Origin: an uncultured virus (IMG/VR IMGVR_UViG_3300024346_006382)
Taxonomy: Duplodnaviria > Heunggongvirae > Uroviricota > Caudoviricetes
Virus record (IMG/VR): IMGVR_UViG_3300024346_006382
DNA: 64,000 nucleotides
Strand: one strand, 5' to 3'
Every line of letters begins with the position of its first letter. Within the stretch, counting starts at the first letter, position 1. This document shows positions 1,311-34,145 of this stretch, one piece after another. The position numbers and the translations under genes are program-made. The notes below the pieces were generated by a model that did no database searches, was not told where the DNA came from, and saw only the letters and a program-made list of their open reading frames with translations.

Positions 1311-1350
1311 CAAACAAAAAACCCTGAGAGTCTTGCGATTCCCAGGGTCT
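1311..1350 (-). terminator. Intrinsic terminator (attenuator terminator candidate)
   Basis: ACCCTGGGAATC-GCAA-GACTCTCAGGGT followed by TTTTTGTTTG on the minus strand. Confidence 0.85.
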
Positions 1351-1393
1351 TGATAAATTAGTTATGATGTTAACTTGTTACCTAGTCCCCGGG
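1341..1393 (-). promoter_or_regulatory. Antiterminator hairpin, mutually exclusive with the 1311-1350 terminator
   Basis: CCCGGGGACU (1393-1384) pairs with AGACCCUGGG (1350-1341, the terminator 5' arm); the stem continues with GGUAA/UUAUC and AGUUA/UAACU. Confidence 0.75.
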
Positions 1394-1515
1394 CCATGTT
1401 CCTTTGAATCATTGTTGCCGCGAATACTTGTTGGATATGCCGATACAAAGGATACACTGGCTAATGACTGCCATTGTCCCATATGCTTCAGCGTTTTACA
1501 AGTTTTATTCATCAT
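1378..1515 (-). CDS. Putative attenuator leader peptide, 45 aa (MMNKTCKTLKHMGQWQSLASVSFVSAYPTSIRGNNDSKEHGPGTR)
   Basis: Hand-translated; lies between a promoter and a terminator; contains all 20 amino acids; stop codon lies inside the antiterminator stem. Confidence 0.7.
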   Translation of the reverse strand: MMNKTCKTLKHMGQWQSLASVSFVSAYPTSIRGNNDSKEHGPGTR

Positions 1516-1579
1516 AGTCTTTTATTTAGTCCTGGTTGTAAATTAGTGCAATTAAACACCTTTTTTCAATTCATGCTGA

Positions 1580-1608
1580 AGTATAGCAGAATTTTGAATT
1601 ATTGTCAA
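1580..1608 (-). promoter_or_regulatory. Sigma70-like promoter TTGACA-N17-TATACT
   Basis: TTGACA at 1608-1603, TATACT at 1585-1580, 17-nt spacer; upstream of the leader ORF. Confidence 0.75.
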
Positions 1609-1624: not shown

Positions 1625-1753
1625 TTATAGAGTTTCATACTCATCTTTACCACATCCGCATTCTGGACATAAAAATTCAGCGGGCAACTCTTCCCATTTA
1701 CCTTCGGTTTCTTCATCATGGACATGTCCACAAATTACACATACATGATCCAT
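1625..1753 (-). CDS. Rubredoxin, 42 aa (MDHVCVICGHVHDEETEGKWEELPAEFLCPECGCGKDEYETL)
   Basis: CxxCG ... W.ELP..F.CPxCG motifs; TAATG overlap with the rubrerythrin stop; not in the ORF track. Confidence 0.9.
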   Translation of the reverse strand: MDHVCVICGHVHDEETEGKWEELPAEFLCPECGCGKDEYETL

Positions 1754-2217
1754 TATACTGCTCCCTTTGTTAGTTCATCTAATTTTTGTTGATATGCTTC
1801 AGCATGGCGTTTCTCTACTTTAGCAAGAGCCGCAAAACGCTTTTCAGCTTTCTTTAATATTTCTTGGAATTCACCTGCATGACGTTGTGATTCTTCAATT
1901 TGATGTTGTGCTTCTTTTGCCGCATTTAAATTGCCTTCAAATTCAGCAATCTCACGGAACTCCGGGTACATCACTTCAAACTCATAAGTCTCACCTTCAA
2001 TTGCCATCTCTAAACATTGTTTAGTGTCTGGCTTCTTAATAAGCAATTCTAAATGACCCCATGCATGTAATAGCTCCTGGTCTGCTGTATGCTCAAAATG
2101 TTTTGCAATATCTTCGTGGCCTTCAGCACGTGCGATTTTTGCAAAATATTTATATTTTACATGTGCTTGGCTTTCACCGGCTAGTGCCCCTTGTAGGCTA
2201 GTTATAGTTTCTGACAT
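1753..2217 (-). CDS. Rubrerythrin-family (ferritin-like di-iron) protein
   Basis: ALAGESQA..KY.YFAKIARAEG, QE..HA, AIEGETYE...MYPEF, E..HA motifs; no fused rubredoxin domain. Confidence 0.9.
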   Translation of the reverse strand: MSETITSLQGALAGESQAHVKYKYFAKIARAEGHEDIAKHFEHTADQELLHAWGHLELLIKKPDTKQCLEMAIEGETYEFEVMYPEFREIAEFEGNLNAAKEAQHQIEESQRHAGEFQEILKKAEKRFAALAKVEKRHAEAYQQKLDELTKGAV

Positions 2218-2238
2218 AGTTTCTCCGTTGTGTGTAAA

Positions 2239-2541
2239 TTATTCTTCAGTTGGTGTTAAACCATTACTGTGTTTATCTGTTGTTCTTTCAGTATCCTGAA
2301 ACAAACGTTTCTCTTGTGCTGTTAGTTTATCTTTATGCGACCTACGTGGATTGCCACATATATAACATTCTTTATTACCACAATCCATAACATGATGTTT
2401 TGCTAAACGATGCGGTTCTTTTACTGCTTTATCTTTATGTGTTAATCCATGTGCTTTTGCTATCTTAACTTGTTTCTTAACTGCTGTCTCGTCCCGATAT
2501 CGGCGTTGTGAGTTTAAAAATTTTGCTAATTCATTGGCCAT
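2239..2541 (-). CDS. Basic hypothetical protein with CGxxxCxxCGNPRR motif
   Basis: Overlaps the iscU stop; His/Cys cluster suggests metal binding. Confidence 0.7.
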   Translation of the reverse strand: MANELAKFLNSQRRYRDETAVKKQVKIAKAHGLTHKDKAVKEPHRLAKHHVMDCGNKECYICGNPRRSHKDKLTAQEKRLFQDTERTTDKHSNGLTPTEE

Positions 2542-2920
2542 TATATTTCTTTCTATAATCTTCTACTGCGGCTTTGATGGCGTCTTCGGCAAGGATACTG
2601 CAGTGGATTTTGACTGGGGGGAGGCTGAGTTCGTCGGCAATACTGGAGTTTTTAATGGATGTTGCTTCATCCAATGTTTTACCCTTGACCCAGTCTGTGA
2701 CAAGACTTGAAGAAGCAATTGCCGACCCACACCCATATGTTTTAAATTTGGCATCTGTTATAATTCCTGTTTCTTTATTTACTTTAATCTGTAATTTCAT
2801 TACATCACCGCAAGCAGGTGCGCCAACCATACCAGTACCAATATCAGTATCACTCTTATCAAAAGATCCGACATTCCTGGGATTTTCATAATGGTCAATT
2901 ACTTGTGCGCTATAAGCCAT
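2531..2920 (-). CDS. iscU: Fe-S cluster scaffold protein IscU
   Basis: DHYENPRNVGS, GAPACGDVMKLQI, FKTYGCGSAIASSS, LPPVKIHCSILAEDAIKAA. Confidence 0.97.
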   Translation of the reverse strand: MAYSAQVIDHYENPRNVGSFDKSDTDIGTGMVGAPACGDVMKLQIKVNKETGIITDAKFKTYGCGSAIASSSLVTDWVKGKTLDEATSIKNSSIADELSLPPVKIHCSILAEDAIKAAVEDYRKKYNGQ

Positions 2921-33050: not shown

Positions 33051-34145
33051 TTAAAACGTTATTGAACCACTAGTGGTAAAATAGTAATATCTATATCCAC
33101 CTGAAGTAGATGTTGTTGCTCCTGATACGGATGATGCTACTGGCAATGTATCTACATATCGTATTACTACAATTCCTGTTCCTCCACCTGTAAGTGAAAG
33201 ACCACTACTACCACCTACACCATAACTACCACTACCTTGGCTACCAGCTGATGCTTCATAGAAAGGATCACCTGCGCCACCGCCACCGGGAGCATATCTA
33301 TTACCATCTAACCATACGCTGCCTATACCACCATTTCCTCCGGGCTGTGTAGGAGGAAATGGTCCACCTGCATTGCCTTGAGCTCCTTGAGCACCGGCTC
33401 CACCGCCACCACCTGCCGATGAATTATTATCAAAATCACCACTATATGATGGGCCGGCACCACCGCTAGATCCTTGAGAGCCAAAGCCACCAAATCCAAC
33501 TGTAGTGTATGCGCCTTTGCCGCCGCCGCCTGAGCCTCCACTGCCACCATTACCTAAAGCACCACCACCTCCACCGTTTGCCGAAGTGATTCCAGAAATA
33601 CTACTTGATGATCCTGAATCCGCAACTGAAGGATTGGTTGAACTATTTAGTTGGCTTCCGCCACCACCTACAGTAATTGTATAATTTTGTCCTGTAATCA
33701 TATTAGTAGAGCCATCAACATATCCACCGGCGCCACCGCCGCCACCTTGACTATGACCACCGCCACCTCCACCGATTATTAAATAATTTACTGCTCTAGT
33801 AACTGGAGGGGTAGTAATACTATTACTTGTTTGACTATTAATGCTAGTACCATTACCATTAGTTGCGGTTACTGTAAATATATAGCTTGTATTTGGGGTT
33901 AAACCTGATATGTTAAAAGTACCAGATCCTGCTTGATTTAATGTAGTAGTAATATTACCTGGACTGCTTGTTGCTGTGTAACTTGTTATAGTAGTAGAGC
34001 CACCATAAATTGGTGCAGTAAATGTTAATGTTGCTGTTGTAGTACCAGTTGCAGTAGCTGTTCCAATTGTTGGGGCATCAGGCACAAAGGCTGGAGTTAT
34101 TGTCCATCCATCTGATATTGTTACGCCTGAAAAAGTTAATGCCAT
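33051..34145 (-). CDS. FN3 domain plus glycine-rich putative adhesin
   Basis: PDAPTIGTA..LTFTAP..ITSYT..SGLTPNTSYIFTVTATNGNG (FN3), followed by the same Gly-rich domain. Confidence 0.8.
   Translation of the reverse strand: MALTFSGVTISDGWTITPAFVPDAPTIGTATATGTTTATLTFTAPIYGGSTTITSYTATSSPGNITTTLNQAGSGTFNISGLTPNTSYIFTVTATNGNGTSINSQTSNSITTPPVTRAVNYLIIGGGGGGHSQGGGGGAGGYVDGSTNMITGQNYTITVGGGGSQLNSSTNPSVADSGSSSSISGITSANGGGGGALGNGGSGGSGGGGKGAYTTVGFGGFGSQGSSGGAGPSYSGDFDNNSSAGGGGGAGAQGAQGNAGGPFPPTQPGGNGGIGSVWLDGNRYAPGGGGAGDPFYEASAGSQGSGSYGVGGSSGLSLTGGGTGIVVIRYVDTLPVASSVSGATTSTSGGYRYYYFTTSGSITF

Follow-up and report, generated by a model that had tools for sequence, protein, structure and literature searches.

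The 64,000-nucleotide stretch of DNA analysed here (the window) comes from an uncultured and large phage, IMG/VR record IMGVR_UViG_3300024346_006382. Close to its first position it carries a compact module, made up of a promoter, a leader gene of 45 codons whose peptide contains all 20 amino acids, and an intrinsic terminator, and followed by a small open reading frame (ORF), a structured RNA and tRNA genes. All elements of the module lie on the minus strand, and positions are those of the whole window. The results described below suggest that, by way of this tiny all-20 gene, slow decoding by ribosomes probably allows transcription to continue past the terminator.

The module begins with a sigma70-type leader promoter, P1 (TTGACA-N17-TATACT, 1608-1580), which matches 11/12 consensus positions and has TG before its -10 box. 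The 5' untranslated region (UTR) contains a short hairpin, GUG...CAC (1546..1560), and the invariant motif CAGGACTAAATA (1534-1523), located 7 bases upstream of the leader ATG; ACTAAATA (1530-1523) is part of this motif region. The leader ORF, 45 codons and a TAA stop (1515-1378), covers two segments that are expected to act as RNA. Region 1 (UUCGCGG, 1418..1424) lies under the codons Ser-Ile-Arg-Gly and, as long as region 3 has not yet been transcribed, is able to pair with region 2. Region 2 (CCCGGGGACUAGGUAA, 1378..1393) corresponds to codons 41-45 and the stop, and forms the 5' strand of the antiterminator. An inner hairpin, AGUUA/UAACU, and the antiterminator 3' strand (UUAUC, AG, CCCUGGG) follow at 1341..1376, and CCCUGGG at the end of that strand doubles as the 5' arm of the terminator (region 3). 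The intrinsic terminator (1350..1311) has a stem of 1350-1341 with 1330-1321, a GCAA loop region and the U-tract TTTTTGTTTG at 1320-1311.

Downstream of the terminator, a second sigma70-type promoter, P2 (TTGACA-N17-TACAAT, 1297-1269), overlaps the start of a 55-codon ORF, ORF55 (1287-1120). An ORF-free segment of 226 bases (1119-894), a conserved structured RNA called here the 'down' RNA, adjoins the first gene of the tRNA array, tRNA-Arg(ACG) (893-817), which is followed by tRNA-Lys(UUU) (809-733). A first-pass annotation had placed P1, ACTAAATA, the 45-codon ORF, the terminator and P2 at these positions, with a small ORF after the terminator, and all of them were found there. It had also listed tRNA-Arg, tRNA-Lys and tRNA-Ser; the first two were recovered, but the third is a fragment cut by the window start, for which ARAGORN gives no call. 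A 222-codon ORF (720-52), with TATAAATA 5 bases before its ATG, is located between tRNA-Lys and this fragment. It has a weak match to phrog_24927, and relatives such as L005 have tRNA-Ser right after tRNA-Lys.

Relatives of the module were collected by scans of viral contigs, which gave at least 169 loci comprising at least 106 distinct modules and at least 91 distinct peptides of 40-59 residues; module and peptide counts of relatives given below are among the matches listed. The first 33 distinct relatives were found through the first 38 bases of the ORF, the terminator, the end of the ORF or the downstream RNA, and the widest scan, based on nothing but the motif and the opening four bases of the ORF, gave at least 120 loci. 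The modules fall into two main clades, between which the middle and inner antiterminator helices are quite different in sequence. Searching 185,579 species genomes with the motif pattern returned 8 matches, and one of them, in a binned contig (L175), carried the module. The other 7 were rejected as chance matches, lying in unrelated frames with no ORF or terminator. Blastn of positions 700-2300 against deposited phages gave tRNA-sized matches only (7% cover), and tblastn of 50,697 phage records found no match to the leader peptide (E up to 1) or to a 663-residue neighbour.

As for the conserved parts, a P1-like promoter was present in 92/101 distinct upstream regions. AGGACTAAATA was found in 34/34 sequences of the first sample, which had been chosen without regard to the motif, and the distance between motif and ATG was 6-8 bases in all of the first 33 distinct relatives. 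The CAGGACTAAATA motif might act as a late-promoter-like box of the T4 type (xTAAATA), as a ribosome-binding site (AGGA) at some distance from the ATG, or as both. The 5'-UTR hairpin of the window is a shortened form of a longer hairpin in relatives, and in the alignment it differs on both sides between relatives, with GTGTAAA/TTTACAC in L004 and GTACAAA/TTTGTAC in L002; the 5' UTR folds at -5 kcal/mol or below in 59/92 relatives. Downstream of the motif, 166/170 sequences have an ORF of 40-59 codons, and all length differences are in frame. All of the first 33 relatives carry an ORF of 44-59 codons with a TAA stop, and the stop codons of the 106 distinct modules are TAA in 100, TAG in 4 and TGA in 2. 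By these comparisons the leader ORF is real and conserved, and it may be translated. Because conservation starts at the -35 box of P1 while the preceding gene varies (rubredoxin in the window, CMD/AhpD-like in L004 and L005), the module was regarded as a unit of its own.

The leader peptide of the window contains all 20 amino acids, the set being complete at E39, and its ORF uses 34 distinct codons, both as counted in the first-pass annotation. That annotation had further proposed testing whether leaders of relatives keep the full set despite divergence. Among the 91 distinct peptides, 86 hold 20 types and 5 hold 19 (one without C, one without D and three without V), at a median pairwise identity of 41% and a minimum of 8%. 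Cys occurs exactly once in 89/91 peptides; Trp occurs exactly once in 88/91 and is absent in none. Each of these two residues was found in 8 different alignment columns, and in L041, L104, L082, L121, L052, L157 and L085 the usual Cys or Trp site is lost and the residue is present elsewhere. The composition is unusually even: the largest share of any one amino acid has a median of 0.11, Ala makes up 6.4% of residues, and identical residues stand at most 2 in a row in 76 peptides and 3 in a row in a single one, while 14 have no longest run above 1. The clustered regulatory codons of amino-acid-specific attenuators are not present.

Such coverage is far beyond chance. Only 1.5% of 6,354 windows of 45 residues from the phage's ordinary proteins hold 20 types, and the share is 0.57% of 16,888 when the giant proteins are included. 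Within-clade column shuffling ignores relatedness, so a tree-aware null was used instead, in which the changes per column and the tree were kept and the placement of changes was random. Full coverage was observed at 30/31 tips versus a mean of 10 under this null, and 0/3000 trials reached 30. Taken separately, clade 1 showed 20/21 versus 8.05 (6 of 3000 trials) and clade 2 showed 10/10 versus 5.98 (54 of 3000). ORF55, a matched control of the same size from the same genomes, has 16-18 types, and 20 types were found in 0/46 of its distinct peptides. These comparisons between relatives show that full 20-amino-acid coverage of the leader is kept by selection.

Codon choice in the leader also departs from that of the genome. 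The first-pass annotation had cautioned that its codon diversity was close to what uniform use would give; this has to be corrected, as the ORF exceeds the expectation from its own genome's codon usage (32 distinct codons versus 27.9, P 0.026). It also has rarer codons than this usage predicts (P 0.02), and the G/C-ending codons that had been called unusual for the genome are indeed more frequent than expected (P 0.012). The leader front, that is the part away from the RNA-pairing segments, was then compared with the window genes, taking the window codon table as a proxy for relatives whose sequences are mutually related. Of 99 distinct coding sequences, 96% exceed these genes in the number of distinct codons at the front (mean z +1.44), and 94% use codons there that are rarer (mean z -1.54).

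The RNA of the module is predicted to adopt two mutually exclusive folds. The long hairpin that had been proposed to sequester the 5' arm of the terminator (CCCGGGG/CCCUGGG, CU/AG, GGUAA/UUAUC, AGUUA/UAACU) is the minimum free energy structure in folds without the terminator 3' arm, at -21.9 kcal/mol. The antiterminator (1393-1341) was calculated at -19.3 kcal/mol (-19.3 to -20.6 across calculations), and the terminator hairpin (1350-1321) at -16.1 kcal/mol, or -18.6 with the A:U extension, so the two states of the window are balanced by these predictions. A simple terminator scanner overlooked the window terminator, whose loop is longer than 8 bases. When folds were stopped before the terminator 3' arm, its 5' arm paired upstream in 33/33 of the first relatives. 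In the larger sample it did so in 87/90, and the partners reach the end of the ORF in 90/90. A hairpin with at least 4 T was called in 90/106 modules; 13 of the 106 were uncalled, and the 12 of these that were inspected have a hairpin with only 3 T. The stop codon always falls within the 5' strand of the long hairpin or beside it: in one clade it is part of that strand, and in the other it lies in the apical loop. Its distance to the terminator arm is 16-33 bases, so that a ribosome at the stop would cover region 2 and leave region 3 free.

Covariation between antiterminator and terminator pairs in relatives had likewise been suggested as a check, and compensatory changes were found in both structures. 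Pairs were counted on alignment A2 with 60 alignable sequences, about 20 rows of which are one base off in the outer helix and so bring down the proportion of paired cells; a cross-clade MAFFT alignment, A1, misregistered the CCGGGG of the clades and was left out of the counts. In the antiterminator 88.4% of 997 cells were paired, versus 31-61% when the strands were slid. Four pairs changed on both sides, pair 20-55 being GC in 38 sequences and AU in 19, and the covariation score was reached by 0/500 shuffles. The terminator was paired in 98.7% of 536 cells, and its pair 61-89 switches between CG (44 sequences) and AU (15). Cognate antiterminator halves had a mean of -21.9 kcal/mol, in contrast to -14.8 for between-clade chimeras, and against a shuffled 3' core the mean z-score was -3.6. 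Together, this conservation and covariation show that the antiterminator/terminator switch is under selection, as judged from the aligned relatives.

Of 99 distinct coding sequences, 59 translate the core of region 2, C[CU]NGGG, as Pro-Gly and 22 translate it as Arg-Gly, with the exact word absent in 18. Because the same core is read in two frames, the apparent 'P-G motif' is an RNA element. A SecM/ApdA-like arrest motif in R-G-P-G was also considered, the known motif being RAGP/RAPP. It was rejected, since the same bases are read as Pro-Gly or Arg-Gly.

Downstream of the switch, P2 is kept in 29/32 distinct contexts with its spacer fixed at 17 bases, and its -10 box is kept while the underlying codons vary (IQY, IEY, IKS, LQL, VES and others). 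The start codon of ORF55 (1287) sits within the P2 spacer, and ORF55 can therefore be encoded only by read-through from P1. Transcripts from P2 carry an untranslatable remnant of ORF55 as the leader to the RNA and the tRNAs. ORF55 looks like a real gene: its 46 distinct coding sequences have a median ratio of nonsynonymous to synonymous substitution rates (dN/dS) of 0.44, and 41 of them begin with ATG and 5 with TTG. No family match to it was found in Pfam or PHROGs, and an ESM Atlas lookup returned only unnamed clusters (at most 0.77).

The 'down' RNA has several hairpins changed on both sides, the invariant words AACGAG and GGGCGG and a variable inserted hairpin. It adjoins the first tRNA, so RNase P cleavage would set its 3' end. 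Rfam searches gave only tRNAs at the gathering score and, on 1-2300, nothing credible at E up to 5. Among 84 modules with at least 300 bases downstream, P2 was found in 62, the ORF55 motif in 48 and the core of the 'down' RNA in 67. In 12/84 the 'down' RNA follows the terminator without P2 or ORF55, in 8 of them within about 50 bases. Same-strand tRNAs follow the module in 61/106 modules within the downstream DNA covered, and of these 61 arrays 33 open with tRNA-Gln(UUG), 17 with tRNA-Arg(ACG), 6 with tRNA-Asn and 5 with others. In L004 (3437-3900), a tRNA-Arg(ACG) gene is broken after the anticodon arm and followed by an ORF with an H-N-H-like motif recognised by eye. ARAGORN calls no tRNA-Arg at this locus and Pfam gives no match for the ORF; the interruption may be a homing-endonuclease insertion or an intron.

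Taken together, we favour the reading that the module works as a ribosome-mediated attenuator of transcription, of the whiB7/trp kind, and reports general decoding capacity, and we hold it with somewhat better than even confidence. Translation of the leader, the way in which the switch turns and the physiological condition to which it responds are inferred. Host RNA polymerase would start at P1, with a late-type start just upstream of the ATG also possible, and a ribosome would translate the 45-codon leader. A ribosome in step with the polymerase would reach the last codons and the TAA and would unwind and cover the antiterminator 5' strand (1393-1378), whereupon the terminator arms could pair and transcription would stop at 1320-1311. 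If the ribosome were late, through failed initiation or a stall at a hungry codon, the antiterminator (-19.3 kcal/mol) would form once its 3' strand emerges, would sequester the terminator 5' arm and would let the polymerase read through. Every amino acid is kept, mostly in one to a few copies and with varied, rather rare codons, and therefore a shortage of many different charged tRNAs could delay the ribosome. Read-through in the window would give the sole message encoding ORF55 and would add to the 'down' RNA and tRNA array driven by P2; in some relatives, which lack ORF55 and P2, it would run directly into the 'down' RNA and the tRNAs.

Expression was examined in the assembled contigs of four metatranscriptome runs, which carry no starts, ends, strand or level and are uninformative about the parts they do not cover. 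Two RNA-library contigs bridge the terminator, X16 record 16 (1193-1395, 0 differences) and X15 record 5 (1242-1390). They fit read-through and give a weak hint of it; DNA carry-over is another possible source, and RNA ends are not visible in contigs.

Several results weigh against this attenuator reading. The full-length fold of the window, with the terminator 3' arm included, has the terminator state as its minimum, and therefore the outcome rests on kinetics, beyond what folding can settle. The ribosome-binding site is poor or distant, with AGGA 15 bases upstream of the ATG, as had been cautioned at the outset. The varying columns of the leader number 35, 33 and 40 of 45 at codon positions 1, 2 and 3, without a third-position excess, and its dN/dS is 0.43; the peptide or its RNA is therefore constrained beyond the need of a pure coverage sensor. 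Regions 1 and 2 account for part of this constraint, and the N-terminal C..LKH.G.W motif stays unexplained. The position of the residues matters as well. All 20 lie upstream of the point from which a stalled ribosome would begin covering region 2 in 48/85 peptides under the rule of A site +8, and inside the sensing zone in 13/85 under the +12 rule; Glu, Asp and Gln are the usual absentees, often at the very edge of the sensing zone. Since P2 is conserved, the tRNAs of the window need not depend on read-through and the attenuator could only add to them. Of the initial proposal of an attenuator controlling the tRNA array, the anatomy of the switch is supported and control of the tRNAs is not supported as written, ORF55 being the gene that strictly needs read-through. 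The further claim that a stall at almost any earlier codon would allow read-through is not supported as written, because pairing of regions 1 and 2 may limit what is sensed: as in trp, it could terminate transcription upon early stalls or in the absence of translation and so narrow the sensing to codons near region 1.

Region 1 also gives rise to a different explanation, an attenuator of the specific type, in which region 2 is released only by stalls at or near Ser-Ile-Arg-Gly, much as by stalls at the Trp codons of trpL, and which would sense arginyl-tRNA(ACG) or a few neighbouring codons and nothing of the remaining peptide. The bases under these four codons are almost invariant, and of 98 sequences 77 use CGC and 21 use CGT for the Arg. 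In the window genes CGC accounts for 26 of the 377 Arg codons (7%). While region 3 is still absent, at least half of region 2 is paired with upstream bases in 68/92 distinct coding sequences, most often across this Arg codon, and by analogy with trp the resulting 1:2 helix may be a pause or anti-antiterminator helix. In addition, tRNA-Arg(ACG) is the first tRNA in the window and in 17/61 arrays. Nevertheless we consider a specific attenuator unlikely. There is a single Arg codon at this site and no run, the array begins with Gln(UUG) in 33/61 cases, and the 1:2 helix of the window is weak (-8.1 kcal/mol) beside an antiterminator of -19.3 to -20.6. G:C pairing in region 1 would account for the frequent CGC just as well, and the upkeep of all 20 amino acids with relocating Cys and Trp would be left unexplained. 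A match between the conserved Arg codon and the first tRNA was dropped as a general rule, as the first tRNA varies.

The leader could instead be a small protein-coding gene of the usual sort, transcribed as a unit from P1 to the terminator, its peptide having a function in itself, its stop-codon hairpin serving message stability or translation termination and its coverage being a side effect. The dN/dS of 0.43 and the conserved motifs C..LKH.G.W, S-I-R-G and P-G would fit such a gene, as would its own strong promoter and terminator and the separate promoter of the downstream genes. We rate it as slightly more doubtful than the specific attenuator. A folded or binding peptide would not be expected to hold 20 types in 86/91 peptides at 41% median identity with Cys and Trp relocating, and ORF55 is without such a pattern. 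Moreover, one of the three motifs, P-G, is an RNA element read in two frames, a hairpin for stability has no reason to pair and co-vary with the terminator 5' arm, and the leader peptide matched 0 families in Pfam and PHROGs at E up to 1 and nothing in the tblastn of phage records.

That the unit from P1 to the terminator is a regulatory RNA of about 260 bases, its open frame incidental or secondary, is very improbable: it is a discrete promoter-to-terminator unit with a conserved 5' hairpin and the invariant CAGGACTAAATA, and the whole transcript folds better than shuffles (z -2.99), but 166/170 sequences keep the frame open despite numerous indels, each of them in frame, the middle part varies freely at the sequence level yet retains frame and composition, and Rfam has no match.

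The surroundings of the module are as follows. Immediately upstream lies an iron-sulfur and oxidative-stress cluster (1625-2920, minus strand), consisting of a NifU/IscU-like gene (2920-2531, 4.8e-54), a rubrerythrin gene (2217-1753) and a rubredoxin gene (1753-1625). PHROGs profiles in the window include ribonucleotide reductase, ferredoxin, 2-oxoglutarate (2OG) oxygenase and baseplate-wedge-like giant proteins. The giant ORFs run from 25582 to 63999 on the minus strand, with 2043, 1279, 1597, 1491, 973, 1034, 1594 and at least 1256 codons and baseplate-wedge-like repeats; this region also shows long spurious ORFs on the opposite strand, and its G+C reaches up to 0.45 at 32-36 kb. T4-type late promoters have xTAAATA boxes ahead of structural genes, and such boxes were found 15-35 bases upstream of many structural or giant genes of the window (for example those starting at 34145, 39338, 48977 and 59835). 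The count of CTAAATA in the window is not enriched over shuffles (17 found versus 21 expected), so the case for these boxes rests on position and not on count. Their placement is consistent with T4-type late promoters.

To our knowledge, phage tRNA arrays are usually seen as constitutive codon-usage patches or as spares against host tRNA cleavage, and almost nothing is known of the control of their expression. As a tentative extension of the attenuator reading, one that we would not yet put at even odds, the leader might work as a test strip for decoding of every kind: whichever charged tRNA is lost, transcription of ORF55, the structured RNA and 20 to 40 tRNAs would rise, and adequate decoding would shut them off again, in a homeostatic and possibly counter-defensive manner. 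Its triggers could then include starvation late in infection, the demand of the skewed giant structural proteins and host anticodon nucleases, the link to anticodon nucleases or tRNA depletion being inference only. A full-text literature search, supplements aside, found no paper on a leader-peptide attenuator before phage tRNA genes or on a 20-amino-acid leader. If the reading is right, no leader-peptide attenuator before this one has been linked with tRNA genes, and it would be the first leader with comparative evidence of selection for complete amino-acid coverage and not for one amino acid. It would represent a compact natural sensor of global decoding capacity, which its consensus sigma70 promoter would make directly testable in E. 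coli extracts, and it would mark out ORF55 and the 'down' RNA as unknown products in a translation-support unit.

The module was finally compared with known systems. The leaders trpL, hisL, leuL, thrL, pheL and ilv belong to attenuators of enterobacterial amino-acid operons and contain runs of the regulatory codon. The phage module resembles them in its short ORF, in the mutually exclusive 1:2, 2:3 and 3:4 pairings, in a stop placed so that the ribosome would mask region 2, and in an intrinsic terminator about 65 bases after the stop. It differs from them in that the leader has no single-codon runs and is 3 times the length of trpL, the 1:2 helix is weak and no biosynthetic operon follows. T-box riboswitches bind one specific uncharged tRNA directly, using no ribosome or ORF. 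The phage module as proposed here would share with them the coupling of read-through to tRNA charging, and no T-box match was found for it in Rfam at E up to 5.

We know of no sequence relation between the phage module and whiB7 of mycobacteria, and no WhiB7 regulator lies downstream of the module in the window, where ORF55, the structured RNA and the tRNAs are found instead. According to the whiB7 report, efficient translation of the upstream ORF (uORF) leads to a Rho-independent terminator and stalling leads to an antiterminator, and experiments showed that the composition of the uORF decides which shortages are sensed, removal of its single Trp codon weakening the response to Trp deprivation (bioRxiv 10.1101/2023.06.02.543512). 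By that account, the two systems have in common a long, diverse uORF, read-through upon poor translation, the sufficiency of one codon of an amino acid for sensing its shortage, and general sensing of translation stress, all but the first being proposed here for the phage. The whiB7 uORF is described there as Ala-rich (25-40%) and as lacking amino acids (Cys in M. smegmatis, several including Trp in M. tuberculosis), unlike the phage leaders with 6.4% Ala and full coverage kept. It controls a cellular transcription factor with positive feedback, whereas the phage module precedes a small ORF, a structured RNA and tRNAs. A multipurpose uORF is also known from E. coli topAI-yjhQ: stalls of toiL at different positions are reported to remodel the downstream RNA, and many translation stresses are sensed (eLife 2025, PMC12121999). 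By the same report, toiL differs from the phage leader in acting on a ribosome-binding site and Rho-dependent termination, and on no intrinsic terminator, at a cellular toxin-antitoxin locus (PMC12121999). What sets the present module apart is therefore its phage setting, its link to a structured RNA and tRNA genes, and, most clearly on the comparative evidence, the selection for complete coverage.

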